From contig OX597822.1 in assembly GCA_951406725.2 (NCBI GenBank), positions 55,676,001 to 55,740,000 of the forward strand: a stretch of DNA of 64,000 nt, in the 5' to 3' direction. The DNA comes from Octopus vulgaris. Taxonomy: Eukaryota. This document shows, one piece after another, positions 21,444 to 64,000 of this stretch (position 1 is the first letter of the stretch; every line of letters begins with the position of its first letter). The notes under the pieces are model-generated. The model saw only the letters and a list, made by a program, of their open reading frames with translations, ran no database searches and was not told the DNA's origin. Position numbers and translations under genes: made by a program.

Positions 21444-22618
21444 ATATATGTATATATACGTGGGTGTATACGTATTGTTTTAATTATACACACATACACA
21501 CAAAAAACTGGCACACCGTCGGTTACGGCAATCACATGTATCCAAACCTAGTAATGATAATACCAACTATAACAACACTCTAAATCACAATACACCTCAT
21601 AATAATAATTCACCTAAAAATACTAATCCAGTAGTAGATAACTCTCCCCTACAGTACAACCTAGTATAAATAATAAAGATAAAGATATTAACTTTGATTT
21701 AGAATTGAAATTCCTTACTTCGGCACCATCGTTCGTACAATGTAAAAAATAATAAATACCTCCTGAGCATTAATAGCAATTTTTTAATATCAATGGCCAG
21801 ACTCCCATTAATTAACTTAAGGGAAGAACGAAACAGCCCTTGCCTGCACATAGGTAAGCATGTTTTCTCTAGATATCTCTTCACCTTAATAATAGTAGAC
21901 TTTGATTCTAATTGTTAGCATAATTTACCTTTCAATTACAATTTTTGTTTGATAGATTAACTTATATAGGCCCACTTAGGTAATTCAGCATTAATATTCT
22001 TACACTAAAATCTCTTCCAGTTTAAAAACCCATCTCCCACACTTAATTTCATTTTATTACTTCATTACATTACTTTTCAGTATGACACCCTCTTATAATT
22101 ACATATTGACCGTTCTCAAATTTATACTATAGTGTGCGCATGTATCCATTCCCCCTCTTTGGTCCTTCACCTTAATAATGAAGGAATTTGTCTTTATTTT
22201 GTAATACAATTTACCTTTAATTCATCATATTTTTATATTCATATATAAATATATATATATATATATTTTTTATATAGACTTAAACGGCTTCATGCCCCTT
22301 ATAACATACACCTTTCATTTATTTACCCCGGAGAATAAAGGTTTATTAATAACCAGTCTTCACCTTTATCTTTATTGTGTAATACAATTTACCTTTTATT
22401 AATATTGAATGTTTGATTATCACACTTTAATTTATTTCTGGACTCCTTTTAGTTAATTCAGCATTTGTCCACTTCTAATAAATACAGACCACCCTAGTGT
22501 ACTTACCCTTTGCATTACCTCCCCTACACAATACGATAATCATTTAACATTTTAACACCAAATTTGCATCCTCAGTTAAGTATTTGCTTGCTCTTTGTTT
22601 TACAATTTGTACTTACAA

Positions 22619-22647
22619 GAGTGGCTGTGTGGTAAGTAGCTTCTTAC
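22619..22647 (+). mobile_element. SINE family B head (A box), split by insertions
   Basis: GAGTGGCTGTGTGGTAAGTAGCTT-CTTAC matches the 5' end of the intact copy at 59808-60231(-). Confidence 0.85.
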
Positions 22648-24695
22648 CAGACAGACGTGTTGTTTTTTGCTCCTGCAAATGTCACGTGTTTGAACGTGAA
22701 ATGTTGAACTTTTGACTCGGCGACAGGTAAGACGTTCTGTATTTTTAGAAGCATAGTGAAGTTTATTGCTTGCTTAATGTTATTTAGCAGTTAACGTTAT
22801 CTAGCATTAATATTTTTTTGCGGGTAATAGACTTCACTTTGCTTCAGTTATATTTCTCTGCCTGTTGTCGTGTCTAAGGTCTCACTCTTTAGTGAGAATT
22901 GTGCTTTTTGAGGAGGCGTAGCCCCTCCGCAAAAATTAATTTGTTTGCTTGTGTTTTCCACTGGATTTACCACGGAGTACCAAGGCTGAAAGGACCAATT
23001 GTGCTGCGACTGGAGTACCCTGTTTCGTTAGGATTACCAGAGTTGCAGAACTGTGTTGCCATTGACTGAACTGTCTTCCTTCGTTCTTTTCTCTGCTCTG
23101 TCTTTCTGTTCTTTCATTGTGTTTTTTATTGGACTTTTATTAGAACTTTGAACTTTTGATTGAACTCTTTTTCTCTTTTCATTTAAAATCATGGCAACGA
23201 AAGAAACCACTGCTTTGGAGTGGGAGGTTGTCCCGCCCAAGCAGTGGGTTGAAGGTCTTGAGAGGAGGACGGTGGTCCTACGAACCTATTCTAGGTCGCG
23301 TGGAGCCATCGCCCTCTTCGACAGGAATACTATAGAGAGAGAGTTGGGGGACCACCTGCCAACTATAAAGTTTATTTCTCGGGGGACTAAATTTGCAACG
23401 GTGTGGTTGCTGTTTGCTACCCCCGAGGAAGCTAGCAGATTTGCTAGCGAGCCCCTGGAGGGAGAGGAAATTTTGTTCCTCCCCTCGTATTGTGGCAGAA
23501 AGATAAAAAGAGCCTGGGTTTGTGGGCTGCCCCCGGGCACGGAAGCGGGATGGATCGAGGAGACCATCCGGCGAGGCCTGGGGGATAGCGGACCCAGGCT
23601 ACTGAGTGTAAAAATGGCTCCGCGGTCGCCTGGGAGGGGTCAAAGTTGCCTTTGACCCTGTGGAAACCGGTGGCCGTGGGAGAAATGAAATTCCCGGACT
23701 TCCTGAGAATGGCTGGGCACAGGTACCCGGTGATACTCGAGGGTCGCCCCCCAAGTGTCACCTGTGCCTGAAGCCCGGACATATCAGGAGGAATTGTCCC
23801 AGGGGCCGTGGTGGTGCCCCGGAGCAGAAAGGGGAAAAGGCGCCCGCCGCCCCCTCATTGGAGGGGGAGACGGTGGAAGTCGTGGAGGAGGTTGCCTCCA
23901 CGAAAAGAAAGAGACAGGCGAGCAACAATGGTTGCCCGCCAAAGAACGCTCAGGTGGCGGAGGGGGATAGCGATCCCCCGTGTCTGGTGACGGAGTCCCC
24001 TGGGTCAGCAGTCTCCCCCAAAAGAAGGAGGAGAAAAAGGAGAGGTCAGACGACTGACGTTTCTGTGTCGCCGACGGAGCCGCGGGTGGGATGTGTGCCA
24101 CCTGCGGACAAGGCTCCGCCAGTGGGAAGTGTGCCACTGACGGAGCAGTGTGAGGTCCCTTCCTGTGAAGAGGAGATGCTTCTCCTCCTTTACCACAAGG
24201 GAGAGGAGGTGAAAAGGTTTTTGAATGGCTTGGGTGACCGAGAACGCAAGGGCACGGTCGGCTCAAGGAGTCCGTTATGGCCTCCGCGGGTAGCTGCGGA
24301 AAAAGTAACGGAAGATATTTTGTCAAGGGTCGCAGAGACCTTTGAGAGGAAACATTTCACTTTTCTCTTTGCAGGCCCCGACTTGTCGCAGAGTTGTCTG
24401 CAGGCGGCAAGACAATTTGCTTCGGGAACCTGACGGGGAGAATTGTTGAACATTCTTGTAACATGTTGAAGAGGAGGTTTATTGCCTCCTCTAAAATATG
24501 TAATTTGAATCATTGTGAACATTTTGTGCATTAAATGTAATTATTGAACATTGTTTTAGAGAAGCGGAAGTCGGCGGGCGCTTTTGACTTCTCCCATCAC
24601 CATCTTCATCCACCACCACCATCATCCATTAATGTCCTTGTCCAGCCCGTAGCTACTACTCTGTGTGCTGCCCTAGTGGCAAATTATATAAAATA
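22648..24695 (+). mobile_element. ORF1-only Tx1-like retroelement, copy 1
   Basis: 540-nt 5' UTR, gag-like ORF1, conserved 3' UTR ending AATAAA. Flanked by a duplication of the SINE target. Confidence 0.85.
23191..24433 (+). pseudogene. Tx1/L1-type ORF1 protein (CCHC zinc knuckle), two 1-bp frameshifts (~23620, ~23750)
   Basis: MATKETTALEWEVVPP...LEGRPPKCHLCLKPGHIRRNC (CX2CX4HX4C). Homologous to ORF1 of the EN-bearing element at 54.3-55.6 kb. Confidence 0.8.
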
Positions 24696-24710
24696 AAGTA
24701 GCTTGCTAAC

Positions 24711-39068: not shown

Positions 39069-39188
39069 TTTCTGTATCTCGTGTGGGTTAATGATATGTA
39101 TAAGAGTGAAAAGGAACACACGAGTTGATATATATGAAAAAACAAGTAAAAAATAGAAAATGCTAAAATAATTTTATAGTGAACATTT

Positions 39189-42255: not shown

Positions 42256-43451
42256 TGAATGCGGTGGTTGGGACGGTAGCTAGTATATAGTTGTTCTTTG
42301 TTGATTAGGGGTCTCCTGTTGTGATTTGTGGTGTGTGTTCTTGGAGCAGTATTGAGGAGAGCATCCCGATATCCCATATTCTGGTGTGGTGTTCTAGGAG
42401 GCCTTCGTTGGTAATCATTGCAAGTGGTGTGGGTTTGTTGTGCATGGTTGTTTAACCGGTTAATGGGACGAAGATTTCGTTGGTAACTCCTTTGGGTGGG
42501 GATGAGGTTGCAGTGTCTATGCTGTGGGTGTTGATTTATCCTTTCTCTGCTTGAAGTGGGGGTATTCCTGATATTGTATCGCTGGCTGCTTACAGAGTTG
42601 GGGTTAGGTCCTGTATTCTTTTTTTGATAGTAGTGAAGGTTCCGATTTTTAGACGGGTGTGTATCGGTGTTTGGGTGTTGTTTTGGTTTTCTTATTTTCT
42701 GGAAAGGGTTGTTGGAGGCGTGCTCTGTTTGAAAGACGGCTTCATAGTCTGAGAACCAAGTGGCGCTTTTCTCCCAGCGTTGGAGAGATTTTAGTTCTTC
42801 TTTTTCACAGTCCTCTTTCCATAGTTTGGAGAACTTCTCTTGATCTGGGCCTTGGGTCATTTTGCGAATTTCTTCGTTGATATCTTCATCGGTGGATTTT
42901 ATTTTATCCTCATTCGTTTGGGCCCTCAATTTCAGAAGTTCTATTTCCATTTTCATTTTTTCCAGTGCCATTCTCTCCCTGAGGTGTCTTTGTGTTTCAG
43001 GTTCTTCTGTAATAGCTTTGAACTGGAATTTACGTGGGAGGATTAACGGGGTCCGGTTGAGCCATTTTTCGTATATATCCGCTTTGTTGTTGTTTTGGAT
43101 CATCTTCCAAAAGGCGAACTTTCTATCTCTGAGTGATTTGTTCCATTGTGGTATTATGTGGTGTTTCATTTGGTATGTTGTTAGAGTATTGATCCCATAT
43201 ATTGACGCGTTTGGAGGTCCTTGGTTAGCGTTGTTAGAGAAAAATGTTCTAATTGTTTCGCATAAGTTTCCAAGGTTTTCGACAATTTCGGAGGTTGTAT
43301 TTTTCGTATATGTTTCTTCATTGTTCTCTCGATTGGGTTGAAGTGTCGAGTCGAATTTGTTCAAAAAAGTTGACAAATTTGTGTTGATTTTCTTGAGTTC
43401 TTTCAGTATTTCTTCGTTTATGGAGGTGATTGTGTCTGTTTTTGTCGGCAT
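42216..43451 (-). CDS. PLE ORF1, 411 aa (MPTKTD...), coiled-coil plus basic/N-rich tail
   Basis: Intact and identical in two units. Heptad-rich LRERMALEKMKMEIELLKLRAQ...INEEIRK; R/N/H-rich C-terminus. Confidence 0.85.
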   Translation of the reverse strand: MPTKTDTITSINEEILKELKKINTNLSTFLNKFDSTLQPNRENNEETYTKNTTSEIVENLGNLCETIRTFFSNNANQGPPNASIYGINTLTTYQMKHHIIPQWNKSLRDRKFAFWKMIQNNNKADIYEKWLNRTPLILPRKFQFKAITEEPETQRHLRERMALEKMKMEIELLKLRAQTNEDKIKSTDEDINEEIRKMTQGPDQEKFSKLWKEDCEKEELKSLQRWEKSATWFSDYEAVFQTEHASNNPFQKIRKPKQHPNTDTHPSKNRNLHYYQKKNTGPNPNSVSSQRYNIRNTPTSSRERINQHPQHRHCNLIPTQRSYQRNLRPINRLNNHAQQTHTTCNDYQRRPPRTPHQNMGYRDALLNTAPRTHTTNHNRRPLINKEQLYTSYRPNHRIHFLDPIRKHRDTR

Positions 43452-43571
43452 TTTCTGTATCTCGTGTGGGTTAATGATATGTATAAGAGTGAAAAGGAAC
43501 ACACGAGTTGATATATATGAAAAAACAAGTAAAAAATAGAAAATGCTAAAATAATTTTATAGTGAACATTT

Positions 43572-43609
43572 CAGTACCGGTTTCGGTCATTTTGAGACCT
43601 TTTCAACTG
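43572..43609 (-). ncRNA. Minimal hammerhead ribozyme (U3-A8)
   Basis: Identical to 39189-39226. Confidence 0.8.
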
Positions 43610-44350
43610 TAACGATTAAATAATTAAATTTAGAAAAATTAGAAGAAAAGTTTTTTTAAAACAATATTTCTATAGTAGTGTTCAGATTTAAGTGGCATTC
43701 TGCCTTTCTCTGACTCCCTTGTTTGCACTTGTGTGTTCGAGGTAGTTGTGAGTTCTTGGTAGGGTAGTAGAGGGAAGGCTGGTGAGGAAAGGGGGTGGGA
43801 GAATCTGGGAGTGCCCTGATGGTCGTATTTTGAATGGTCAGTGGCGGCTGGCAGTCTCAGTTCAATTCAGGATTGTTTATAGAATTAGTGTAGGTGTTAT
43901 ACTAAAAAACATTAGTGACAAACTTAAGGGGTAGGGAGTGGAGAAGAAGAAGAAGAAGAAGAAGAAGAAGAAGAAGAAGAAGAAGAAGAAGAAGGAGAAG
44001 GAGAAGATGATGGTGATGGTGGTGATGATTATGACGACGATGATGATGATAATGATGATGAAGAAGAAGAAGAAGAAGAAGAAGAAGAAGAAGAAGAAGA
44101 AGAAGAAGAAGAAGAAGAAGAAGAAGAAGAAGGAGGAGAAGATGGTGGTGATGATGGTGGTGATGATGATGACGCCGATGATGATGATAACGATGATGAT
44201 GAAGAAGAAGAAGAAGAAAAAAACAGAGAAGGGAGAATATGAATGGGTGTAAATATAGCTATGAAGGGGCTGATTAGTAATGGATTCTATGGAGTGTAGT
44301 ATTTGTGTGTGTATATATATTTTTTTCTTTTATTCTAAAGTTGAGGTATA

Positions 44351-46681: not shown

Positions 46682-47877
46682 TGAATGCGGTGGTTGGGAC
46701 GGTAGCTAGTATATAGTTGTTCTTTGTTGATTAGGGGTCTCCTGTTGTGATTTGTGGTGTGTGTTCTTGGAGCAGTATTGAGGAGAGCATCCCGATATCC
46801 CATATTCTGGTGTGGTGTTCTAGGAGGCCTTCGTTGGTAATCATTGCAAGTGGTGTGGGTTTGTTGTGCATGGTTGTTTAACCGGTTAATGGGACGAAGA
46901 TTTCGTTGGTAACTCCTTTGGGTGGGGATGAGGTTGCAGTGTCTATGCTGTGGGTGTTGATTTATCCTTTCTCTGCTTGAAGTGGGGGTATTCCTGATAT
47001 TGTATCGCTGGCTGCTTACAGAGTTGGGGTTAGGTCCTGTATTCTTTTTTTGATAGTAGTGAAGGTTCCGATTTTTAGACGGGTGTGTATCGGTGTTTGG
47101 GTGTTGTTTTGGTTTTCTTATTTTCTGGAAAGGGTTGTTGGAGGCGTGCTCTGTTTGAAAGACGGCTTCATAGTCTGAGAACCAAGTGGCGCTTTTCTCC
47201 CAGCGTTGGAGAGATTTTAGTTCTTCTTTTTCACAGTCCTCTTTCCATAGTTTGGAGAACTTCTCTTGATCTGGGCCTTGGGTCATTTTGCGAATTTCTT
47301 CGTTGATATCTTCATCGGTGGATTTTATTTTATCCTCATTCGTTTGGGCCCTCAATTTCAGAAGTTCTATTTCCATTTTCATTTTTTCCAGTGCCATTCT
47401 CTCCCTGAGGTGTCTTTGTGTTTCAGGTTCTTCTGTAATAGCTTTGAACTGGAATTTACGTGGGAGGATTAACGGGGTCCGGTTGAGCCATTTTTCGTAT
47501 ATATCCGCTTTGTTGTTGTTTTGGATCATCTTCCAAAAGGCGAACTTTCTATCTCTGAGTGATTTGTTCCATTGTGGTATTATGTGGTGTTTCATTTGGT
47601 ATGTTGTTAGAGTATTGATCCCATATATTGACGCGTTTGGAGGTCCTTGGTTAGCGTTGTTAGAGAAAAATGTTCTAATTGTTTCGCATAAGTTTCCAAG
47701 GTTTTCGACAATTTCGGAGGTTGTATTTTTCGTATATGTTTCTTCATTGTTCTCTCGATTGGGTTGAAGTGTCGAGTCGAATTTGTTCAAAAAAGTTGAC
47801 AAATTTGTGTTGATTTTCTTGAGTTCTTTCAGTATTTCTTCGTTTATGGAGGTGATTGTGTCTGTTTTTGTCGGCAT
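46642..47877 (-). CDS. PLE ORF1, second intact copy
   Basis: Protein identical to the 42216 copy. Confidence 0.85.
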   Translation of the reverse strand: MPTKTDTITSINEEILKELKKINTNLSTFLNKFDSTLQPNRENNEETYTKNTTSEIVENLGNLCETIRTFFSNNANQGPPNASIYGINTLTTYQMKHHIIPQWNKSLRDRKFAFWKMIQNNNKADIYEKWLNRTPLILPRKFQFKAITEEPETQRHLRERMALEKMKMEIELLKLRAQTNEDKIKSTDEDINEEIRKMTQGPDQEKFSKLWKEDCEKEELKSLQRWEKSATWFSDYEAVFQTEHASNNPFQKIRKPKQHPNTDTHPSKNRNLHYYQKKNTGPNPNSVSSQRYNIRNTPTSSRERINQHPQHRHCNLIPTQRSYQRNLRPINRLNNHAQQTHTTCNDYQRRPPRTPHQNMGYRDALLNTAPRTHTTNHNRRPLINKEQLYTSYRPNHRIHFLDPIRKHRDTR

Positions 47878-47997
47878 TTTCTGTATCTCGTGTGGGTTAA
47901 TGATATGTATAAGGGTGAAAAGGAACACACGAGTTGATATATATGAAAAAACAAGTAAAAAATAGAAAATGCTAAAATAATTTTATAGTGAACATTT

Positions 47998-48035
47998 CAG
48001 TACCGGTTTCGGTCATTTTGAGACCTTTTCAACTG
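47998..48035 (-). ncRNA. Minimal hammerhead ribozyme (U3-A8)
   Basis: Identical motif in the partial upstream repeat. Confidence 0.8.
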
Positions 48036-48185
48036 TAACGATTAAATAATTAAATTTAGAAAAATTAGAAGAAAAGTTTTTTTAAAACAATATTTCTATA
48101 GTAGTGTTCAGATTTAAGTGGCATTCTGCCTTTCTCTGACTCCCTTGTTTGCACTTGTGTGTTCGAGGTAGTTGTGAGTTCTTGG

Positions 48186-50375
48186 TTTACACCCACCCCA
48201 CAACACCCCAACTACAATGAAATGAAAGAAGACATCGCAGAATTCTGCAGAAAATTAAGACTTACTGAGGAGCTATACGATAAATACAACGAGGACGAAT
48301 CGTTAGCCAGAAATAGGAGTAACTACACCCCCTCGAAAGGTAAGAATAAAACACTTGATGATTTCTGTGACCACATATCAAATTACCCATATCAACATAT
48401 GCACAAACAAAAACACAAACCAAACTTCAGCAAAAAAGAATGGGCTGAGTTGAACAAATTAAAACTAGATAAAACAATAACAATCAAAGAGGCCGATAAA
48501 GGGAGTGCTGTTGTCTTAATGGATACGACATTTTACATAACTTTGGTACTTTCTATGCTGGAAGACACAACATACTATGAAAAGGCACAAAACTACAGTC
48601 AACAAAAAATAATGAGGGAACTAAAATCCATATTAAACCCATACAAAGCAGGGCTCACCGACAAAGAATATGATTATATGACCAATTTCACAAGTAAAAC
48701 TAGCCAATTCTACGGTATACCTAAGATCCACAAAAGTGAAAAAATAAGCAACGCATGCAAGATAGCTACAGACAAAATAATTAAAGTCCCTAATCCTAAT
48801 GACCTCAAATTGAGACCCATAATAGCAGGTCCCGCATGCGAAACCCACCGCCTCAGTAACTTTTTAGACACCCTGTTAAAACCACTCCTCAAACATGTCA
48901 AAAGCTATATAAGGGACGACTTAGATATGCTCAATCACCTACCGAATACTATAAACAAAAACACCATACTGGTATCCTTCGATGTAGTCAACCTCTACTC
49001 CAATATCCCCCACAACCTAGGACTAGAGGCAATCCAATTCTGGCTAGAGAATCACGCCAACGAACTACCACACCGCATCAAAAAAGAATTTGTGATAGAA
49101 GGGGTTAAATTCATCCTGGAAAATAACTTCTTCGCCTTCAATGACAACTTCTACCGACAAAAATCGGGGACTGCGATGGGTACACGAATGGCCCCCTCCT
49201 TTGCCAACCTAGTCATAGGATACCTAGAGATCAGTCTGTATCGTAAGGTTCTAGAAAGATATGGCAGCCCTTTCTCCATCTACATAGAAAACAACTGGAA
49301 GAGATATCTAGATGACTGTTTCATCCTTTGGCATAAAAATATAGAAAAACTCATAGAATTCCAGAAAATTTTAAACGGACTGGACGTAAACATCCAATTC
49401 ACGATGGAATATAGCCAACAACAACTCCCCTTCCTCGATATCCTCATTAAGAAAGCTAATAATATAATAGAAACAGACATATACTATAAGCCTACAGACT
49501 CTAAGCAATATCTTCCATTCAATTCATGCCACCCCAGACACACCAGGATGAATATCCCCTTCAATCTAGCAAAAAGGATATGCACTATAGTCTCTAACGC
49601 AAACACCAGAGACACACGACTACAAGAACTAAAAGATACCCTAATCACCAGGAACTATCCACCTTCACTTATTGACAAGTGCATTCAACGTGCCCTTCAA
49701 CTTAACATCAAGGAACTGAGACATCCCAAATCAAAGAAAAACTTACAACCAAAAGCCTTACCATACATCTCCACACACAACCCTCTCAATAACGAAGCCT
49801 TCGACACCATCCTCCACAACATACCCCTCCTAAAAAAAGACCACAGAATGAACACAATCCTCCAAACACACACGATCATAAAAAGCAAAAGACAGCCTAG
49901 ATCCATGAAAAGTCTCCTTACACAAGCCCGAATTCACTCTTCAACACAGAAGCCGACAGTAAAAAAATGTGGAAGACCCAATTGCGGGATATGCGACTAT
50001 CTAATCGAGGGTTCGGAGTTCTCCTTCAAACAGGGACAACGGTTTACAGTGAAAAGCAACTTCACATGTGCTTCGGAGAACCTAATATACTCACTAACCT
50101 GCTCCGGGTGTCAAGAGCAGTACATAGGCCAAACAAAAAATGGTTTGCGTAAACGAATGGCCCTGCACAGATCCCAGATAAAAATTCCCCAAAACAGAAA
50201 AATAGCTTTTAGCCAACACATAGATACTTGCGCCAACAAAAAAACACCAAACTTCAGAATTTTCCCCCTCTACCAATTTAGGGACGATACAACCTCGAGA
50301 CAAAGAATAAGTAAAGAAAATCTCTTTATTACAAAATACAAGCCACTTCTTAATGGGTCTACGACAAACAATTAA
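48186..50375 (+). CDS. PLE ORF2 RT + GIY-YIG, inverted 5'-truncated copy (starts at FTPTP)
   Basis: Same protein with one E>D change; the conserved N-terminal motif is cut by the inversion junction. Confidence 0.9.
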   Translation, partial: FTPTPQHPNYNEMKEDIAEFCRKLRLTEELYDKYNEDESLARNRSNYTPSKGKNKTLDDFCDHISNYPYQHMHKQKHKPNFSKKEWAELNKLKLDKTITIKEADKGSAVVLMDTTFYITLVLSMLEDTTYYEKAQNYSQQKIMRELKSILNPYKAGLTDKEYDYMTNFTSKTSQFYGIPKIHKSEKISNACKIATDKIIKVPNPNDLKLRPIIAGPACETHRLSNFLDTLLKPLLKHVKSYIRDDLDMLNHLPNTINKNTILVSFDVVNLYSNIPHNLGLEAIQFWLENHANELPHRIKKEFVIEGVKFILENNFFAFNDNFYRQKSGTAMGTRMAPSFANLVIGYLEISLYRKVLERYGSPFSIYIENNWKRYLDDCFILWHKNIEKLIEFQKILNGLDVNIQFTMEYSQQQLPFLDILIKKANNIIETDIYYKPTDSKQYLPFNSCHPRHTRMNIPFNLAKRICTIVSNANTRDTRLQELKDTLITRNYPPSLIDKCIQRALQLNIKELRHPKSKKNLQPKALPYISTHNPLNNEAFDTILHNIPLLKKDHRMNTILQTHTIIKSKRQPRSMKSLLTQARIHSSTQKPTVKKCGRPNCGICDYLIEGSEFSFKQGQRFTVKSNFTCASENLIYSLTCSGCQEQYIGQTKNGLRKRMALHRSQIKIPQNRKIAFSQHIDTCANKKTPNFRIFPLYQFRDDTTSRQRISKENLFITKYKPLLNGSTTNN

Positions 50376-51070
50376 TATACCTCAACTTTAGAATAAAAGA
50401 AAAAAATATATATACACACACAAATACTACACTCCATAGAATCCATTACTAATCAGCCCCTTCATAGCTATATTTACACCCATTCATATTCTCCCTTCTC
50501 TGTTTTTTTCTTCTTCTTCTTCTTCATCATCATCGTTATCATCATCATCGGCGTCATCATCATCACCACCATCATCACCACCATCTTCTCTCCTTCTTCT
50601 TCTTCTTCTTCTTCTTCTTCTTCATCATCATCGTTATCATCATCATCGTCGTCATAATCATCACCACCATCACCATCATCTTCTCCTTCTCCTTCTTCTT
50701 CTTCTTCTTCTTCTTCTTCTTCTTCTTCTTCTTCTTCTCCACTCCCTACCCCTTAAGTTTGTCACTAATGTTTTTTAGTATAACACCTACACTAATTCTA
50801 TAAACAATCCTGAATTGAACTGAGACTGCCAGCCGCCACTGACCATTCAAAATACGACCATCAGGGCACTCCCAGATTCTCCCACCCCCTTTCCTCACCA
50901 GCCTTCCCTCTACTACCCTACCAAGAACTCACAACTACCTCGAACACACAAGTGCAAACAAGGGAGTCAGAGAAAGGCAGAATGCCACTTAAATCTGAAC
51001 ACTACTATAGAAATATTGTTTTAAAAAAACTTTTCTTCTAATTTTTCTAAATTTAATTATTTAATCGTTA

Positions 51071-51108
51071 CAGTTGAAAAGGTCTCAAAATGACCGAAAC
51101 CGGTACTG
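51071..51108 (+). ncRNA. Minimal hammerhead ribozyme (U3-A8), predicted cleavage after 51105
   Basis: CAGTTGAAAAGGTCTCAAAATGACCGAAACCGGTACTG, about 98 nt before the element 3' end. Confidence 0.8.
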
Positions 51109-51195
51109 AAATGTTCACTATAAAATTATTTTAGCATTTTCTATTTTTTACTTGTTTTTTCATATATATCAACTCGTGTGTTCCTTTTCACCCTT

Positions 51196-51260
<65 letters not shown>

Positions 51261-51271: not shown

Positions 51272-51385
51272 GTTTCCCCCCAACATCGCTTGACAACCGA
51301 TGCTGGTGTGCTTACGTCCACCTAACTTAGCGGTTCGGCAAAAGAGACAGATAGAATAAGTACTTACCTTACAAAGAATAAGTCA
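51272..51385 (+). mobile_element. SINE family B, orphan 3' half
   Basis: CCCCCAACATCGCTTGACAACCGATGCTGGTGTG...GATAGAATAAGTACT matches the post-microsatellite half of intact copies. Confidence 0.8.
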
Positions 51386-52176
51386 TGAGGCGCTAACCAA
51401 TGAAATAAAGGACGTTATATCGTCACTCTTGAAAATTGACGTACAATTGAAAATGGAGTACTCGCCCACCAGAGACACCTAACGATGACGTGGTGGTGTA
51501 AAAATTGTGCAACACTTTAAACTTCCCACCCTTTAAAGCTGCTATGCGAAAAATTATTTTTACTACTATGTGGTGGTAATAGTTGTTTAACTTGATTTTA
51601 GTTTTCACAAAGACTTCTGATCAAAGGCATTTAAACAACAATGTCACTCCATTCAATGGAAATTTGACTGCCATTTCTAATAGCACTTACAAACGCATAG
51701 AAGATCCATCACAGGGTTCTTTAGGTGTCTACACGGTTTGTGCTGTATAAATATAGTTGTTTAGCTTTATAGACCATTTTGTTGACTTATTTATTTTGTA
51801 AATCAGTATTTTTATCAGATAAAAGTCTAAGGCTGATTTAACGAATTGCTAATGTGTATACAAAAAATTAATGTAGACAGCCGTATGCAATGTGTTACCT
51901 AAAAGGAAAACTAGTTATCACTAGATATAACTAGGGTCACTGTGTGGTTGGTAAGCAAGCTTCTTAGCGTCCAGTCACACTTGCGCCGATATAATTGAAG
52001 TATTAATAGAGCGGATAGGAGTACCACTATTAAATCTTTAGATAAAACTTGTAACCGCCGTTTCCAGGAATCATATCCTTTAGGAGGGAAGTGCCTGAGT
52101 AAAAACGTAGTATACAAGTGCGAAGTTAGTACAGTAAATCCTATGGGACATAGGAAAATTTATATAGGGAGTACTC

Positions 52177-52815
52177 TCTTTACTCTTTTACTCTTTTACT
52201 TGTTTCAGTCATTTGACTGTGGCCATGCTGGAGCACCGCCTTTAGTCGAATGAATCGACCCCAGGACTTATTCTTTGTAATCCTAGTACTTATTCTATCG
52301 GTCTATTTTGCCGAACCGCTAAGTTACGGGGACGTAAACACACCAGCATCGGTTGTCAAGCGATGTTGGTGGGGGGGGGGGAGACAAACACAGACACACA
52401 GAAATACATACATATATATATATATATAATAGTTATCGCCATACTAATATGGCATTCTTATAAAAATAAGAATAAAGCTGTCCGCTTATTAGCTCCATGA
52501 GGCCATGGAGCTAATAAGCGGACAGCTTTATTCTTATTTTTATAAGAATGCCATATTAGTATGGCGATAACTATTATTTTCCGGGAACGCTGCCGCTGTT
52601 CTCTTTTAGAGAGACTTAGTAATTTTAATATTTCTATTATATATATATATATATATACATATATACGACGGGCTTCTTTCAGTTTCCGTCTACCAAATCC
52701 ACTCACAAGGCTTTGGTCGGCCCGAGGCTATAGCAGAAGACACTTGCCCAAGTTGCCACGCAGTGGGACTGAACCCAGAACCATGTGGTTCGTAAGCAAG
52801 CTACTTACCATACAG
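52177..52815 (-). mobile_element. SINE family B copy with an insert in its internal (TA)n
   Basis: Head at 52660-52815 (uninterrupted target GGTAAGTAGCTTGCTTAC), 3' half at 52177-52390. Confidence 0.85.
52426..52577. repeat. Perfect palindrome, 74-bp arms, 4-nt loop
   Basis: 52426-52499 is the exact reverse complement of 52504-52577. Confidence 0.95.
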
Positions 52816-53974
52816 TAATATTGATTTTAAAATAAATATAGGGGACACAAGAATTCATTTCTTAACCCCAATATAAAAAAAAACTCCACGACATTAGCAT
52901 CATGCATTAACCACTTCAAGTGACTAACATTGAGTATAATTTAAGGTGGTCGATAATTACTGAATCAACACCATATAACAAGCAAACAAAGTCTTGTAGG
53001 CTTTGCATAAAGGAATCGAGTAGCATATTATGTGCTTGTAATACAAATAAACATATTAAATATAATTACGGATGTCTTAGTATGTTGTAAGCATAAATAT
53101 TTAGCAACTTTAAAATTTTTAAACTTTAAAATTAAATATTTTTTAAAAATATGACCTGGATTGGATCCAATGAATATTTATATACAAATCTTTTATCTTA
53201 AATTACCGCTCTCTTATAGTAGTATGGATTAAAAAAAATATATCAATACAAAATGGATATATTCCAATTGGAATATTCCAGAAAAGGAAGATAATGAAAC
53301 GAACAACGAAAGGGAAATGGCTACGAAAAGAAAGAGAAGGAAAAGAAAAAAAGCATGTCACGTGAATATAGACGCACACCCCACACCCACCCACACATGC
53401 CCCTCCTCCACCTACAGACGCTAAACCTCCCCACTCTCCTCCGACACAAAGAAGAGCAAACACACAAAATAACCCCCAAACTTCCTCTCCCCTGGCCGAG
53501 GAAAAAAATTATTATGTAGTGCTGTATGACAAGTCAAATGAGGAACTTGTCGAAGAATCGTGCACTTGGGAAAATACATGGTTACAGTGGGTCCAGGAAC
53601 GTACACCTATATACAAGGGCGGTATAGTTGGTTGCTGGTGACCCAGAAGCAATTATCAAGAATAATGGAATTCAAGGATGGATTTGAATATTCGGAAGAT
53701 AAAAATAAAAATGGATATAAGTGAGCTACAAGGCTATATAGATTATATGGACCTTCTAACGAAGTATACGACTGACATTTTGTCTGGAACTCTGATCAAA
53801 GTAAGGTATGAATGAAACCGCTCAGAGGTGGGGCCGAAAAGCTTCATTACATTTTTCATTTTCATCTCATCTTCCTTTCATACGTTTTTCATTGTTTTCT
53901 TCTTTGTTTCTTGTCCCCCACATGTCTTGTATTGTCTCCTTTGTGTAGCCCCTTGTGGGTAATAAAAAATCATT

Positions 53975-56450
53975 TCATATTTAATCTTTGTATAGAAATG
54001 ATTATATTCTTATATTTTGGTTTTATATTTTGAAAGTGTCTAAAATCTGTTCTCTTGAAGTTTTACTTAGCTGTGTGAAACTAAGGTGTGCTTTGTTTGT
54101 AAGTTTGTTCAAGTTATTTATTAGAGTTATTTGTTGAAGCAAATTGCTTGTTGAAGACCTATTCTTATTGCTTTTGAAAGTAACCTGCCTCAAATTGCCC
54201 CGTGAGGAGAAATTATAATTGTTGAACTTTAACATTTCTGTGCGGCGTCAAGCCAATTTTTCTGCGAGGAGTAACCCCAAAATTTGCGTGTTCGGCGTTG
54301 GCCGTTTTCCGTGACTCGATCGAGTCTGAAAGTTTTACACTGAAACTGTCACCAGTATCATCGGTGGAATCACCATTGTCTCAAACTATGCAAACACCAG
54401 TCATGTCGCCACAAAATAAGGCAACGAAAAAAAAAAATATGGATGTACCCAGTATGTCGACCGGTGAGTTACTTGTGACTCCCGGAAAAAAGAATTCGCT
54501 AGTAGCATCGCCCAAAAAGAAGTTAAATGTGAAAAGAAATATTGAAGTACCCAGTCTGTCTACCGGTGATCCACCCGTGACTCCCTTGACAGAGTCGCCT
54601 AAAAAATTAAGTTCTGCAGCGGCAGCTGGCGAGAAAAGACATAACTATATAGATAAAGGAACTCTCCAAATATGAAAAGATGTTAACTAACAAAGGAGGG
54701 GTCAGAGGTTAAAGTGGCTCCTCCAACCAGCATAACGGAAAACACGAATAAAACAACTGTGTACAAAACGTTTAATGTAAAAAGCAAAAAAATAGATAAG
54801 GTGTCGGAAGAAGCGGTGGAGAAGTGTCTGAAGCCGATATGGCAAGATATCACTTACATAACGAGAGAGAAAAAAGTTTGCTCTGATTGAAGTAAGGATG
54901 ACTACGGAGGAGAAACATCACTCCACAGCAACCTTAAAAACAGAAGAAGTAATTCTCCTCCCCACTTACACGGGGGAGGGGGAGAACTTCAATGATAATG
55001 ATAGGGAGTATCCCACCGGAAGCGGATGCCGCCTGGTTGGTCGCAGCCGCAACCGTAGACCTGGAGAAGATTACACTCTTCCAAGCTATGGTTACAGAAA
55101 AACAGAATTGTCAAGGGCAAATCTTCAATATCATGATACAAGCGGAACCCCTGACACTAGAAGAGATACCGGAGGTGATTCAGGTGGGAGAGGCCAGATT
55201 GGTCGTTTTCGTTGAAGGACGTAAGCACAGGTGGTCAATAGTGAAAATAAAGATTACCCAAACCTCTCTTTCGAAACCTACCAACAACAACAACAACCGT
55301 AAAATTAAAAGAGCAAAGAAACCACTCTCTGAGATGGACAAATCGATGGACAACTTGAAGGCAGTGAGAGCATCAAACAACAGACGACTAGGCCTTTTGT
55401 CAGTCACCCCGACTGCCAAACGGATGGATGAACACTCACCAAAATACTATTACATCTACCAAATTGACGGAAAAAATTATAATATAATGAAAAATGATTT
55501 CAGGGATAATGTAGGCCCATTGCGGAAAGATTTCTCGACGCCAATATTCGAAGGCCTAACTCACCCAACCACGCAAGCCCGTGGCAAAGAAAAAGAGGTG
55601 GATTCTCATCCACCTCCTACCACAGATTAAGGTAGGTCGAAATGGCTATTCATGCTGGTTGTTTAAATGTACGTAGCCTGACGTCGAGCTGGAAGCAAGG
55701 GCACTTTCTAAATGACACCAGGTCACGTGATTTGGATGTAATTGTTGCTACTGAAACCTGGTTAAAGGGGCCAAGAGATCTGCTCCCGCTCCTGGACGAT
55801 TACGAGAAATTCATTTCTCCAGGCTCTTCATCGGGCGGAAATGGGATGTTGGTCCTATTAAAAAGAAATCGGGTTTCAGAGAAAAGGTTAATTTTTTCTG
55901 ATCCAGAAGGTAGGCAGGTCGTCATGGACTTGACGTTCAGTTGTAGTAAGACTATCAGACTGGTTGCAATTTATGCACCCAATTCAATTGATCAAAGTGA
56001 GTATTTTCGTGACCTGGAGAAATTTCTGGGTACGTCACATTCACTAGTTTTGTCAGGAGACTTTAACATAATCTACGTTGAACGCGTGGATTACGTTGTC
56101 TCGAATACGAATGGGCGAGGTAATCTTTGCTTCCGCGGTCAGCTAAATTGCTTTCAGCTAGTAGATTCATATAGACTTGAATTTCCTAACGCTCCATTGT
56201 GGACATGGTCAAACAGCGACGGGTCATGCAGGTCAAACAGAGATAGGATTTTTATAGGAGAAACAGACAGAAATATAGCTAATTTTCATCTGGTCAGCTA
56301 CAGTGATCACAAGCTAGTCACTTGTAAGCTGAACATAGACTATATAGTCGAGGTTCCGGCTACTGGAAGCTCAATACGTCCCTTTTGGCGATTGAAGAGT
56401 AAAGGAACCGGATTAAGATGTTAATACAGAGGTCGTTGACTGGAACCATT
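53975..56450 (+). mobile_element. Decayed, 3'-truncated Tx1/L1-clade LINE (ORF1 + AP endonuclease)
   Basis: Frameshifted ORF1 at 54.3-55.6 kb. ORF2 from 55642: CLNVRSL, ATETW, IYAPN, GDFN, WTW, DRIF, SDH, then shifted RGSGYWKLNTSLL. RT absent. Confidence 0.85.
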
Positions 56451-58699: not shown

Positions 58700-60009
58700 C
58701 AATTTTAACCTCAAATTTTGCACCGATACGTGCTATCCAATATCATGGGCCAGTTCGCCGTTAGGTTTAGCCTCTATAAACAATACCTATTGGACATTGT
58801 TACCACCATGCCACAAGTCTTATTTGCCTTACTTTTAATTAATTCTTTCTGGTCTAATCCATGGATTGTTCGAATACCTCAGACAAGTTTCATTTCTATC
58901 ACTTCCTATGATGTTTTCTAACTGTTCTTGGCATCCATTCTTGCTCGGATTCTCTTCTTTTTCTTGCGTCTAGACCGGCTTTTATATGCTAATAAGTGCA
59001 TATTTGTAAATGTGCAAGATAATATAGAATTAGCAAAGAATAATATAGAATTAGCTATCACCTTGGAATATTTCTGTCAATGGCCTAATTCTATTAGTGA
59101 CTATAGAAGTAACTTCAGTTGTTGCCGCTAGTTATGTGGACCATGTTATTGTCAATCTCAATTGGCTATAGCAGATAGAACCTTAGTACGGTGTAGTAGT
59201 AAATCTATGAATGAAGGAAGCATCTTTTCTCACTATATGGGCAGTAGACTTTTGGTGGTTCTGCTTCGCTTCTTTAAAGATAGATTTGTTGAAGAAGAGC
59301 TGTTCAGCACAGACTCCCACTTCTTTTTCCTCCTATTTGCGCATCAGTCACCACACTGTTTGTTTTGCAATTAAGTAACCAGTGTACAGCTCATACTGAA
59401 CATTTAACATGGTATGAGTCCTGTAGTTTTGGGTATTGTGTGTTGACCATGTAAGTGTCAACCCCTTCGGCACCTCATCGTTCATTATTCGTTTGAATAG
59501 GCTGACGACAGCTTCCCTATAGAACTTTTCTATAACAGGAAATAACTACCAAGTTTCTCCCTAGTAATTTTTCCATTTCGTAGTTCTGCAACAACCGTCA
59601 GGTGAGTTTCATCGCAGATATTATGTTTTGGAAAAGACGTTTGCATAGTACTCACTCCGTATTCATTTAACCACATAGCATCGCGGTTGTTTTATTTGTT
59701 TTCATTCAGAGCTCTCTGATGAGGGGTCCATTGCAACTTTAATACGATCTTTCATGCTGCAGTATATACTTTGTGGGTTTAATGCAAATTTGCGGTTGAC
59801 AATGCTTTCTTTACTCTTTTGCTCTTTTACTTGTTTCAGTCATTTGACTGCGGCCATGCTGGAGCACCGCCATTAGTCGAGCAATTTGACCCCAGGACTT
59901 ATTCTTTGTAAACCTAGTACTTATTCTATCGGTCTCTTTTGCCGAACAGCTAAGTTATGGGGACGTAAACACACCGACATCGGTTGTCAAGCGATGTTGG
60001 GGGACAAGT

Positions 60010-60050
<41 letters not shown>

Positions 60051-61860
60051 CACACACACACATATATACGACGGACTTCTTTCAGTTTCCGTCTACCAAA
60101 TCCACTCACAAGGCTTTAGTCGGCCCGAGGCTATAGTAGACGACACTTGCCCAAGGTACAACGCAGTGGGACTGAACCCGGAACCATGTGGTTGGTAAAC
60201 AAGCTACTTACCTCACAGCCACTCCTGCGCCTGTTAACTTACCGCTCGCAGATCCTTTTTGAGGTATTTACCTTACTCGTGAGTTTCTCTTGTCGGCAGT
60301 TATTGAAGCTTTTTGATAACCTGTCATAGAGTTGCAGTTGCTGGTTTGATAGTTCCTTATTCAACCCAGTTCTCATGATTAAATCCACGTATCCGTGCCC
60401 GATATTTTCCTGTGTTTGTTGGCATTTTTAAGAGAGATTTTTCATTTTAATTGTATGCTAGGATTTCGTTTGATCTTTAGCGAATAGTAATTGCAATAAC
60501 ACTACAGCAGGACATTCAAAGCCCAAACACAGAGTTTCAATTTTCACTACGCTTTCTTTAGCTACTTGATCGATCGCGAATATCATAAAAGCTTCCAATT
60601 GATTCGGGTCGAATTCGTTCTTCTGAACAGCAGTTTGTCTATATAAAATGTAAATCTAGCTGTAAACTGTATTTTGAGTTGTTTATAATACTTAGCTCAT
60701 TTCTGTTAGTTCAGAACTGAGTGTCCGTATAATAGCAGCAGTTGTCTCTCTTGCTATGTATGTATGTATGTATGTATGTATGTATGTATGTATGTATGTA
60801 TGTATGGATGTATGTATGGATGGATGTATGGATGGATGGATGTATGGATGTATGTATGGATGGATGGATGGATTTGGGTGGGTGGATGGATGGATGACTG
60901 GATGGATGGATGGATGGATGGACGGAAGGATGTAAGGATGTGTGTGTGCCTATGCATGTAATTAGTTGGTCAGTCAGTTAGTCACTCTGTTGGGTAAGTA
61001 GGTAGGTAGGTAGGTAGGTAGGTAGGTAGGTAGGTAGGCAGACAGGCAGGCAGGATCTATAACCAAGATTTTAGGTGTCTAAATACTGCAAAGTTTGCAT
61101 AGGTCTACGAGGGAAGAAAAGTTAGCCTATGCGAAATTTTGTTAGACATTTTCTTACTTCCAACAAACGTCGGGTACTGCTGCGAGTTCTAACGCGCACA
61201 CACACACACACACACACACGCATGAACATGTACGTGTGTGCAATCGCGTGCTGTGTGTGTGTGTGTGTGAGTGTGTGTGTATGTATGTGTGTTTGACATA
61301 ACAAAAAACTGTAAAGGACGAACATGAATAAAAATACTAGATATTATTCTGATTGTCTCTGCTGTGTCCTCGTCCTACTTAGGGGAAAGTAATTGTGTTG
61401 AATGATTAGTTAGACAGGAACTTGTTTAGATCTGTACCAAACAGGAGTGTGTGAGCTTGATAATTTCATTATTGTTGATGGTGGTAGTGATTTTCGATTT
61501 AATAAAGTTACAGTTAGTAACATTTTCCCTGTTTTACAAATATTGCTTGTTGGTGTAGTTGCTTCGCTGTAAAATGATTTAATTCTGGATGCAGATCGGC
61601 CCAATATGATTTCAGTAGATTCATATAGCCAACAGCGGAGTTTTGTTTCGTATTTTTTTTGCAGTTAAATTCATAAATCGAAGAGAAATGACTTTTGTAA
61701 TTACGGTTTCTTCTATAACTACAGCTGGAACGTGTTTGTTTACCTATTGCACTGTTGTTTTCGTTTTGTTCCTCGGTTCTGTTGTTGTTGATGTTATATC
61801 CAGCCACGTTGTTATTAATAACTCTCTGCATGTATTTTTCTCGCTGAATTGTGAGAATTT
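58700..61860 (-). mobile_element. Highly decayed R4/Dong-like non-LTR relic, interrupted by a SINE and microsatellites
   Basis: N-terminal YMNLLKSYW...FTAKQL.QQA and RT-like QIGGK..S.C..LL fragments with many stops. Confidence 0.4.
59808..60231 (-). mobile_element. SINE family B, intact reference copy (empty target site)
   Basis: GGCGCAGGAGTGGCTGTGAGGTAAGTAGCTTGTTTACCAACCACATGGTTCCGGGTTCAGTCCC (A and B boxes), internal TA/TG tract, (AAAAGAGT)-like tail. Confidence 0.9.
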
Positions 61861-61879
61861 TTTGGGGGACGTATTCATC

Positions 61880-63711
61880 TTCGGTAATTGAGTGAATATT
61901 TTTCTCACCTACTTATGAGAACTGTATTGTGCCGTGAAAAACTTTAAGAATTGTGAGAACTGCTATATAGGGGAGTGTTTTGCCTCCGAAGTTTGAACAA
62001 TTTTTACCAATTTTATACCAATTTTTGTGGAAGTTGTGTTCCAGTTGCGGCGTTCCGGGTTCAATTTAGGCCGGGAGTAGCCAGACGATTTTTTGCTGTG
62101 TTATTGACTTTCTTTTGAACTTTATTTGACTTTCTCCTTTTTGTTTATTGTGACTTTCTGTTCATTTCTTTCCTTCTGTTGTGCTTTCTCCTTTTTTGTA
62201 TCCTTCTCACCTCTTAAAAACCTATCGTGAACCTTATTTGGACTTTGAACTTTTTTCACATGGCAAAGAAAAATGAAGCCACTGCTTTGGAGTGGGAGGT
62301 TGTCCCACCCAAGCAGTGGATTAAAGATCTTGAGAAGAGGACGGTGGTACTAAGAACCTATTCTAGGTCGCGTGGGGCCATCGCCCTCTCCGACAAGGAC
62401 ATAATAGAAAAAGAGTTGGCAGACCACCTGTTTATTTCTCGGGGGACCAAATTTGCAACGGTGTGGTTGCTGTTTGGTACCCCCGAAGAAGCTAGCAGAT
62501 TTGCTAGCGAGCCCCTTCAGGGAGAGGAAGTTTTGTTCCTCCCCTCGTATTGTGGAAGAAAAATAAAAAGAGCCTGGGTGTGCGGGCTGCCCCCGGGCAC
62601 GGAGGCGGGATGGATCGAGGAGACCATCCAACGAGGCCTGGGAGATAGTGGGCCCAGGCTTTTGAGTGTAAAAATTACTCCCGCGGTCGACTGGGAGGGG
62701 TCAAAGGCAATTTTGACCCTGTGGACCCCGGTGGCCGTGGGAGAGATGATATTCCCAGACTTCCTGAGAATGGCCGGGCACAGGTGCCCGGTGATACTCG
62801 AGGGACGCCTCCCCCAAGTGTCACCTGTGCCTGGAGACCGGCCACATTAAGAAGAACTGCCCCAGGGACCAAAGTAGGATCCTGGAGCAGTTAATGGTGG
62901 AATCTCTCCCTGCTTCCCCAATGGAGGGAGAGAAGCAGAAGAGTGACGAGGAGGTTGTTACATCCTCAAAACGTAAAAGAAAGGCGGGCAACAATGGTGA
63001 CCCACCGAAAGACCCGGGATCTGCGGGAGAAAAAGAGGACCCGTTGTGTACACCACAGGAACCTCACCCTCCAGCGGCCCAGGAAAAAAAGGAAAAAGAA
63101 ACGGGACGCCGCCGGTGAATTGTAACACGCGGACGGCGTCTCCCAAGCCTCCTCAGACGGGTGTGCCGCCGGAGGATAAATATGTGGTCCTCTTCCACAA
63201 AGGAGGAACCATTGAAAATGAGATAAGAAAAATGAAAAGGAGAGGCCAATGGGAGGGACTTCGGTCCTGCACAGAGGACCCTGAGTGGCCTTCGCAGGTG
63301 GCTGCGGAGGTCCTATGGGATAGCGATCTGTGAAGGATCGTGAATTCCTTCCCGGAGGACTCCTATAGATTTGTACCTGTGTGGTCTTGCCTGGAACCGG
63401 CTGAGTGCTTCAATAAAGCAAGAGAGCTGGTCGGCCGGTGATGTGAACTTTTTGTATATTTTGAAGGAACATTGTATTATATTGAAACCTGAACTTTCTG
63501 TATATTTTAAAAGAACATTGTAAGAGGTTTATTGCCTCATTATGATTTGTTGAAAAAAGAACATTATTTTTGAGAAGCGGAAGTCGGCGGGCGCTTTCGT
63601 CTTCTCCCATCATCATCTTCGTTCCATCGCCATCATTCATACCATTAATGTCTGTGTCCAGCCCGCAAAGCTACATCTGTGTAATGCCCCTGTGGCAAAT
63701 TAGATAAAATA
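61880..63711 (+). mobile_element. ORF1-only Tx1-like retroelement, copy 3 (5' end unclear)
   Basis: ORF1 from ATG 62260 with frameshifts (KCHLCLETGHIKKNC). Same 3' UTR; AATAAA followed by target AAGTAGCTTGCTTAC (63712-63726). Confidence 0.85.
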
Positions 63712-63726
63712 AAGTAGCTTGCTTAC

Positions 63727-64000
63727 GCGCATGCGTGTTTGTTAGTTGCTTATCGGATTGGACACTTTCAAGACGTGCATTGGTGGCCGTCTTAAATCGA
63801 AGAACTGTTGAAGAGGCGTGATTACAGGGTAGGCACTTGTTTTTTTTAAGGGACTTAGTGGGGAAGCTGTTGTATGACATTATTTTTCCTTTTTTCATAT
63901 AAGAAATCCTCACTTAGCGGTGAGAATTGTTTTGTTTTGGTGGGCGTGTGTCGCTACCAAAATTTGAAAAGTTTATAAAAATTCGACCCATTCGTGGAGG
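63727..64000 (+). mobile_element. 5' UTR of a probable fourth family member, running off the window
   Basis: Starts GCGCATGCG immediately after the target duplication, like copy 2. Shares the CTCACT...GTGAGAATTG hairpin with copy 1. Confidence 0.7.

Follow-up and report, generated by a model that had tools for sequence, protein, structure and literature searches.

An apparent second stack of ORF1-only retroelements at a 15-nt SINE site in the Octopus vulgaris genome

Does the DNA at positions 61,880 to 64,000 of a 64,000-nt stretch of the Octopus vulgaris genome (GCA_951406725.2, contig OX597822.1, 55,676,001 to 55,740,000, forward strand; the window) hold a second, independent tandem stack of retroelements in the same short interspersed element (SINE) target as a first stack some 40 kb away, as the first-pass annotation had claimed? 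The elements concerned, copies 1 and 2 in stack 1 and copies 3 and 4 in stack 2, are best explained as non-autonomous retrotransposons of ~2–2.3 kb that encode only the first open reading frame (ORF1) and derive from a long interspersed element (LINE) of the L1/Tx1 type (a ‘half-LINE’, HAL1-like). We regard it as fairly probable that they are HAL1-like, probably Tx1-mobilised and target-specific elements that stack by sequential insertion at the SINE site. That stack 2 is a second stack in the same SINE type is likely, if unproven, and it is a supporting replicate, not a separate discovery. Its features, with the untranslated regions abbreviated as UTR, are as follows.

61833..63711, + strand: copy 3, an ORF1-only retroelement; the start is the first recognisable family motif, the 5' end being undefined
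61833..62005, + strand: distal 5' UTR of copy 3, with two to three degenerate GTGAGAA(T/C)T motif blocks, also in copies 1 and 4
62004..62259, + strand: proximal 5' UTR block, 86% identical to copy 2, with copy 1 at background
62260..62811, + strand: N-terminal part of ORF1, with two predicted RRM-fold domains in tandem and DNA 90% identical to that of copy 1
62819..62860, + strand: zinc knuckle of the CCHC type, put into another frame than the N-terminal part by a frameshift in the C-run (~62803–62812)
62861..63441, + strand: C-terminal part of ORF1, a low-complexity basic linker and a short conserved domain
63572..63606, + strand: putative 3' UTR stem-loop of 14 pairs, in 3/3 copies
63708..63713, + strand: AATAAA, whose last two bases are also the first two of the target; no poly(A) tail
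63712..63726, + strand: 15-nt target or target-site duplication AAGTAGCTTGCTTAC between copies 3 and 4
63727..64000, + strand: copy 4, probably a fourth and distinct family member, of which the window shows the 5' end up to where the conserved 5' UTR block begins

The 3' end of copy 3 reads ...AGATAAAATA AAGTAGCTTGCTTAC, followed by GCGCATGCG from 63727; that is, positions 63708–63726 read AATAAAGTAGCTTGCTTAC, with GCGCATGCG (63727–63735) directly 3'. The first-pass annotation had described an AATAAA-target end joined to a new start sequence, and had taken it for the mirror of the junction between copies 1 and 2. Both statements are borne out, as copy 1 ends in ...ATATAAAATA AAGTAGCTTGCTAAC, then GCACATGCG from 24711, and positions 24692–24719 read AATAAAGTAGCTTGCTAAC GCACATGCG. 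The start coordinate given at the time, 61880, turned out to be arbitrary: family motifs are recognisable from ~61833–61846, and the 5' end of copy 3 is undefined. The comparison draws on the following features of stack 1 and of an unsplit SINE.

22618..22649, + strand: SINE head with the upstream target copy at 22634–22647 (one base deleted, TTAC variant)
22650..24695, + strand: copy 1, ~2045 nt, with ORF1 at 23191–24433 carrying two frameshifts
24696..24710, + strand: middle target copy, TAAC variant
24711..26959, + strand: copy 2, 2249 nt, with ORF1 at 25419–26662 carrying one stop and one frameshift
26960..27109, + strand: downstream target copy (TAAC variant) running in register into the SINE body
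60060..60232, − strand: unsplit copy of the target SINE, the reference for the empty site, with A-box-like and B-box-like motifs flanking the 15-mer

The SINE head (22618–22649) and the SINE body (26975–27109) of stack 1 are in register around the two elements, showing insertion into the SINE head with a 15-nt (up to 17-nt) duplication. A Hamming scan of both strands of the window (≤3 mismatches) gave 6 ungapped sites of the 15-mer, namely the 3' ends of three elements (plus strand) and the heads of three unsplit SINEs (minus strand); a seventh site with one base deleted lies inside the SINE head that opens stack 1. For a 13-mer there were 6 matches with ≤1 mismatch against 0.07 expected, a number reached by 0 of 100 shuffles. 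All three element 3' ends adjoin the 15-mer at the same base, at two loci, one of which has SINE flanks. Target-site duplication is found on both sides of copies 1 and 2; copy 3 has no 5' copy, and the 3' side of copy 4 lies beyond the window end (64000). The 15-mer occurs as the TAAC variant in both downstream copies of stack 1, and as the TTAC variant in the upstream copy of stack 1 and in stack 2. The variant thus tracks the locus and not the subfamily, which is the pattern of target duplication; by parsimony at this one site, the variants also imply that copy 1 was probably inserted before copy 2, the downstream target copy having acquired a substitution between the two insertions.

The target, a putative tRNA-type SINE, has 6 matches in the window. 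The 15-mer is located between two motifs of the SINE head that we take to be A-box-like and B-box-like, so that an insertion would split the SINE promoter. The head was not called a tRNA by ARAGORN or Rfam, with no match at threshold in the window. One octopus SINE, OR2, is named in PMC4758252. Kojima's criterion for a target-specific non-LTR element (LTR, long terminal repeat) is that >20% of flanks are one repeat (PMC4494074). As a separate observation, three places (59820–60232, 52190–52815 and 51277–51390) suggest a bipartite SINE made of the body, a TA/GT microsatellite and a second conserved module of ~190 nt; the SINE copy closing stack 1 is without this module. The TA run that follows the SINE body in stack 1 holds a single-copy insertion of ~920 nt (27116–28035) starting TGTTACGG; only this start is solo-LTR-like.

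Copies 1 and 2 are 2045 and 2249 nt long and have a 5' UTR of 540–708 nt and one ORF of ~1.2 kb. After ORF1 only 257–297 nt are left to the 3' end in 3/3 copies, with no room for ORF2. The 3' UTR ends in AATAAA and runs straight into the target, with a poly(A) tail in 0/3 copies; HAL1-type elements carry a 3' poly(A) tail. The first 184 residues of ORF1 were modelled by AlphaFold2 with a mean predicted local distance difference test score of 84.8 (22 aligned sequences). The top Foldseek matches were tandem-RRM proteins (hnRNP A1 UP1; E, 4.4e-5; two-domain TM-score of only ~0.33), and the second domain matched single RRMs with a Z-score of 8.3 (root-mean-squared deviation, 2.5 over 73 residues), which is middling by the tool's scale. 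For the N-terminal part, sequence searches of Pfam and PDB gave nothing informative, and the Pfam family zf-CCHC matched copies 1 and 2 at E 0.009 and 0.004, below the curated cut-off. On the model, the N-terminus of ORF1 is a predicted tandem RRM, and the ORF1 is of type I, with the RRM directly upstream of the CCHC knuckle, a type that occurs with Tx1 in non-mammalian animals (PMC5203782). We call the family ‘HAL1-like’, not HAL1, because its ORF1 is of type I instead of type II.

All three ORF1s are frameshifted in the C-run before the knuckle (23745–23752, 25968–25975 and 62803–62812), and copy 3 has a second frameshift at ~63085–63100 and an in-frame stop at 63331–63333 in the C-terminal part. 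The C-run frameshifts may reflect a slippage hot spot or mutation, or a homopolymer error of the assembly, in which long ORFs near the elements are intact. Programmed frameshifting at the C-run was considered and dropped, as the offsets differ (−1, −1 and +1) and the O. sinensis homologue is continuous in one frame.

The origin of this ORF1 was approached through its homologues. A search of 1.84 billion representatives gave 25 proteins at E ≤0.001. In a separate comparison with 112 candidates there was 1 match, Octopus sinensis LOC115225585 (65% identity; E, 5e-71), the only close named protein relative. A profile was built from 20 outside homologues, with P0001 and the row of the window left out and P0008, P0020, P0022 and P0023 never aligned. 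This profile matches the three ORF1s at ~1e-33, and also positions 54687–55321 at 1e-7 to 4e-22, within the following feature.

54687..56424, + strand: broken L1/Tx1-type LINE, with a distantly homologous ORF1 followed by an apurinic-like endonuclease ORF (profile, Pfam and structures)

The independent E-values of the profile at this ORF1 are 3.7e-22 and 1.9e-17. The endonuclease downstream matches Pfam Exo_endo_phos at 4.7e-11 and L1 endonuclease structures at E 6e-5 to 1e-3, and its Atlas clusters (score, 0.96) are named LINE-1 ORF2 and TX1 149 kDa. Since one profile matches both the ORF1s of the family and an ORF1 upstream of an L1/Tx1-like endonuclease, the family ORF is the ORF1 of an L1/Tx1-type LINE, the L1-clade origin being deduced from the 54–56 kb endonuclease only. 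The LINE region (54380–56424) ends before the reverse transcriptase and is not inserted in the SINE target; this LINE shows the source of ORF1, and is too distant to be the mobilising partner. Longer or ORF2-fused homologues were not found among the matches of what was a weak search, one part of which covered proteins of 1092–3115 residues only.

Several side leads belong here. A fragment at 53300–53970, directly upstream of the LINE, ends in TGTGTAGCCCCTTGTGGGTAATAAA, loosely like the family 3' end, and might be a short non-autonomous element; the resemblance of its 3' terminus is weak, with 6 of 842 tiles scoring as high (the tiles scanned include three family ends). The element at 53.3–53.96 kb was rejected as a family member, as the C-terminal and 3'-end profiles gave no match. 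In P0008, an outside gene model, an ORF1 start like that of copy 2 is joined to an integrase fragment of LTR type, which shows a further family copy in another dataset. A link to ZCCHC3 offered by the Atlas was dropped, there being no paper with both ZCCHC3 and Tx1 among the matches listed.

Is stack 2 independent of stack 1? Over the first 140 codons, the pairwise ratio of nonsynonymous to synonymous substitutions (dN/dS) is 0.20 for copies 1 and 3 (dS, 0.27), 0.17 for copies 2 and 3 (dS, 1.43) and 0.10 for copies 1 and 2 (dS, 2.26), showing that ORF1 has been under purifying selection. The earlier inference that copy 3 is no local duplicate holds, in view of its dS of 0.27 and 1.43 to copies 1 and 2 with dN/dS of 0.17–0.20, and the copies descend from separate master lineages under selection.

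Independence of the loci is accompanied by mosaicism. As had been noticed at first sight, the ORF1 N-terminus of copy 3 is like that of copy 1 (90%, 494/549 aligned, versus 72% to copy 2), while its proximal 5' UTR block is like that of copy 2 (86%, 207/240, versus 61% to copy 1); the alignment of this block scored 262 with 0/200 shuffles reaching it, whereas that of copy 1 with copy 3 was reached by 25/200. The two measures are at odds with one another: copies 2 and 3 have a dS of 1.43 and yet UTRs 86% identical, and copies 1 and 3 a dS of 0.27 and yet UTRs at background. A three-way alignment with 1665 ungapped columns was scored for sites joining copy 3 to copy 1 or to copy 2. The 5' UTR block has a copy 1:copy 2 ratio of 15:48 and the ORF1 N-terminus one of 130:26; for the knuckle the ratio is 9:14, for the linker 73:75, and for the 3' part 43:44 and 17:15. 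The suggestion that subfamilies recombine is supported by this test along the copies, with one breakpoint at the start codon (~62256) and another at the knuckle (~62834), for either of which 0/2000 permutations were as extreme; no further breakpoint was detected in 62813–63711 (892/2000). What does not hold is the likeness to copy 2 claimed for the region after the knuckle, where the sites for copy 1 and copy 2 number 9 vs 14 (62813–62890; p, 0.4) and 73 vs 75 (62891–63330; p, 0.93); the change at the knuckle is the end of the special closeness of copy 3 to copy 1. A protein quartet with P0001, the O. sinensis homologue, gave 16:0:0 for (1,3|2,P) in the N-terminus and, after the knuckle, 2 sites for (1,3|2,P), 3 for (1,2|3,P) and 1 for (1,P|2,3). 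Most simply, a copy-1-type segment from the ATG to the knuckle (the tandem RRM) would have moved into a backbone of the copy-2/P0001 type in the lineage of copy 3, a direction that three copies polarise only partly.

Of copy 4, 274 nt lie within the window. The first 9 nt agree with those of copy 2 at 8/9 positions (p, 1.5e-4), and for the first 120 nt the window holds no match above background. In a scan with its last 100 nt, the 5' UTRs of copy 3 (score, 42) and copy 1 (score, 36) rank first and second of 1270 tiles (background mean, 18.8; standard deviation, 4.0). A profile of the three 5' UTRs matches 63939–63999 at E 0.025, the best non-self match, and the final bases align where the conserved UTR block begins in copy 2. 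Copy 4 is probably a fourth and distinct subfamily member of the family of copies 1–3. The claim of a new element 3' of copy 3 accordingly stands as to its 9-nt start and 5' UTR profile, with membership in the family only probable and the first 120 nt unmatched. A 5' terminus GCRCATGCG is common to 24711–24720 and 63727–63735, and presumably resembles an NRF1-type promoter motif; splice-donor-like GGTAAG/GGTAGG is found 77–105 nt inside copies 1, 2 and 4.

How might such stacks form? An autonomous Tx1-type LINE, situated outside the view, would provide endonuclease and reverse transcriptase in trans and would recognise the 3' UTR, for which the hairpin at 63572–63606 could serve as the signal. 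Between the A and B boxes of the SINE, at the 5' edge of AAGTAGCTTGCTTAC, this LINE would nick the bottom strand and prime reverse transcription. Each insertion would keep the 15-mer and the SINE body at its 3' end, so that the next element of any subfamily could insert there, and the head-to-tail stack would grow with the newest element at the 3' end. Since the site still works with an element end as its 5' flank, recognition would rely mainly on the sequence 3' of the nick. AATAAA adjoins and overlaps the target, and transcripts therefore probably read into target sequence; the read-through RNA could pair with the nicked strand and give exact, tail-less 3' junctions, by analogy with R1Bm, for which the downstream target is said to be necessary for accurate reverse transcription (PMC7265360). 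In stack 2, copy 3 would have come first and copy 4 second, the SINE head having been lost or never having been with copy 3, and the stack would be expected to close with the 15-mer and CAACCACATGGTTCC at least ~2 kb beyond the end of the window. A broader picture, less likely than not, is that of an old, diversified, protein-coding half-LINE lineage, its ORF1 maintained by purifying selection over dS >1 and its tandem-RRM modules exchanged among subfamilies, that specifically parasitises an abundant octopus SINE, kills its promoter with each insertion and is partly RNA-guided in its targeting through pairing of the read-through transcripts, in a three-tier system of LINE, half-LINE and SINE for which the literature searched gave no description.

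A number of results weigh against target-specific stacking by a Tx1-mobilised family. Neither an autonomous partner nor a reverse transcriptase for it is present within the window, and the Tx1 label is indirect; type I ORF1 is not exclusive to Tx1, but found in other clades as well (PMC4120745). All three ORF1s are broken, with none shown active, and the 3' hairpin is without compensatory change and folds no better than shuffles (z, ~0). The linker after the knuckle aligns near background (53–54%), weakening the second breakpoint, with the exceptions of 78 knuckle-adjoining columns (Fisher p, 1.9e-5) and the 3' UTR block (p, 6e-4). The kinship of copy 4 is weak (E, 0.025), its UTR local alignments being reached by 2/200 shuffles for copy 1 and 6/200 for copy 3, and its whole-UTR local alignment with copy 2 is below shuffle level (184/200). 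Both SINE flanks are visible at one locus only. In 60240–62260, 5' of copy 3, there is neither an upstream 15-mer (best Hamming distance, 5) nor a SINE head (three head queries were equalled by 147, 60 and 110 of 300 shuffles), and the 3' end of stack 2 lies outside the window, placing its SINE body out of view. The ‘same SINE target’ of the first-pass annotation is consequently not confirmed for stack 2, where the 15-mer is its one token, and the replication of target specificity extends to the 15-nt junction, with neither SINE flank in sight. Candidates for a head or target at 60987 (the edge of a GGTA microsatellite), 61442, 61548 and ~61730 were all at shuffle level, and GCGCA(CA)n at 61190, considered as a decayed 5' terminus of copy 3, was dropped by inspection as an ordinary microsatellite.

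With the SINE head absent upstream and the body outside the window, there is room for an origin of copies 3 and 4 by 3' transduction or co-mobilisation, without a resident SINE. Copy 3 could have brought a 3'-transduced target, perhaps with the SINE body, and copy 4 reused the site, or copies 3 and 4 could have moved together as one 5'-truncated read-through transcript that came from another stack in the genome. The lack in copy 3 of a SINE head, an upstream duplication and a recognisable 5' terminus such as GCRCATGCG fits this account, with AATAAA standing at the extreme end, read-through into the flanking DNA is plausible, and 3' transduction has been reported for L1, R7Ag and R1Bm (PMC7265360). 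We nevertheless consider it unlikely, though the strongest of the alternatives: a deletion or decay of the 30-nt head, or a deletion of the upstream target at insertion, is equally simple for a copy as decayed as copy 3 (two frameshifts and one stop), and the junction of copies 3 and 4 would even so testify to a targeted insertion separate from stack 1.

Another alternative concerns the true target. It could be a tRNA gene or its RNA polymerase III (Pol III) promoter region, the SINE being struck since it retains that sequence; the site between A-box-like and B-box-like motifs agrees with this, and some site-specific LINEs are known to insert into tRNA genes (PMC4640811, PMC8869645). This is rather improbable, as the window has no tRNA gene, the SINE head, unrecognised by ARAGORN or Rfam, has diverged from its parent, and SINEs make up ~11.6% of the O. 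vulgaris genome (PMC13282606), offering far more target than tRNA genes.

Very improbable is the proposal that the 15-mer is the family's own 3' terminus, captured once from a SINE, with tandems made by template jumping or recombination and no endonuclease specificity. All three copies do end alike with SINE flanks in stack 1 only, and template jumps in vivo have been reported for R2 (PMC3414825), but stack 1 has the SINE head upstream and the body downstream in register, and the two most distant copies, which share a stack, have the same T/A variant, whereas copies 1 and 3, which are closer, have different ones. That stack 2 is a local segmental duplication of stack 1 or a collapsed-repeat assembly artefact is scarcely credible despite the same window, orientation and junction type and a break of all three ORF1s at the same C-run, like a homopolymer error, since ORF1 differs by 10–31% among copies with dN/dS of 0.1–0.2, the flanks are unrelated, copy 4 is unlike copy 2, and three neighbouring Penelope-type ORFs of 756–784 codons are open in the same assembly.

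Among known systems, HAL1 (half-L1) is a non-autonomous L1-clade derivative that encodes only ORF1p and arises repeatedly (PMC5753468). The present family is likewise ORF1-only, without ORF2 and of L1-type origin, whereas HAL1 is mammalian and has a type II ORF1 (coiled coil-RRM-C-terminal domain) in place of the type I ORF1, probable fixed target and absent poly(A) of the elements here. The closest parallel for the stacks themselves is given by crocodilian SINEU-3, tandems of which in Mariner-N4 sandwich a target duplication of ~16 nt by sequential insertion and are mobilised by Tx1-Mar (Kojima 2015, PMC4494074). Both families are non-autonomous and, for the octopus family probably, targeted into an abundant transposon, with tandems sandwiching the target duplication; they differ in that SINEU-3 is short, non-coding and U2-derived with a Mariner DNA transposon as target, and the octopus family encodes a selected ORF1 and has as its probable target the Pol III head of a SINE. 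Target-specific Tx1 LINEs (Tx1L into Tx1D, Keno into U2, Kibi and Koshi into microsatellites; PMC4494074) share the type I ORF1 and, probably, the fixed site in a repeat, and carry an apurinic-like endonuclease, seen here in the distantly related LINE, but are autonomous with ORF2, and a SINE is not among the targets named there; for the family here there is no reverse transcriptase for placement. Known targets of site-specific LINEs are rRNA, tRNA, small nuclear RNA, microsatellites and transposons (PMC4640811, PMC8869645). The SIDEs of R2 and of R2/R1 in Drosophila (PMC3414825) are similarly internally deleted with the 3' UTR, target site and duplication (14 bp for R1) kept and hybrid 5'/3' modules, and are unlike the present family in being non-coding, ribozyme-headed and targeted to 28S rDNA. 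Module exchange at the UTR/ORF1 boundary and within ORF1 has parallels in the 5' UTR replacement of mammalian L1 and the ORF1 shuffling of CR1/L2 (PMC5753468, PMC4120745), but takes place here among ORF1-only elements, as seen in three copies and one outside protein.

The 2026 repeat annotation of O. vulgaris has 80 L1-Tx1 families (PMC13282606), and term searches of its text and supplement returned no ORF1-only, SINE-targeted family; the portions of PMC8967140, PMC4758252 and PMC11203168 that were covered likewise contained nothing on such a family. Within the literature searched, in the parts available, we found neither an ORF1-only element with a fixed target nor a SINE as target, although the family may already have an entry in Repbase or Dfam. 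Taken singly, LINEs with a specific target, derivatives that encode only ORF1 and tandem stacking at a regenerated site all have precedents; new, by that literature, is their union with a SINE promoter as target. If general, the system would be a tractable case for why non-autonomous elements keep ORF1, with a new endonuclease specificity, a stack order that gives a datable order of subfamily activity, and one transposon inactivating another where SINEs are ~12% of the DNA.

Other features of the window, which is rich in repeats, are summarised briefly. Three near-identical (98–99%) Penelope-type copies with reverse transcriptase and GIY-YIG domains (756–784 codons open) and a partial fourth occupy 38138–51200, in tandem on the minus strand with one inverted, and include a gap of 100 N at 38145–38244; two of them carry an intact upstream frame of 446 codons that overlaps the reverse transcriptase frame and has no Pfam match. 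A degenerate (GT/AT)n satellite of ~5 kb with internal duplications (28500–33500) precedes a decayed minus-strand Penelope-like element (33.7–35.5 kb). An exon-like frame at 7340–7972 encodes a core-2/I-branching glycosyltransferase (Pfam Branch; E, 6e-26), likely of a host gene, and an old SINE copy (7144–7294, − strand) lies just upstream of it.

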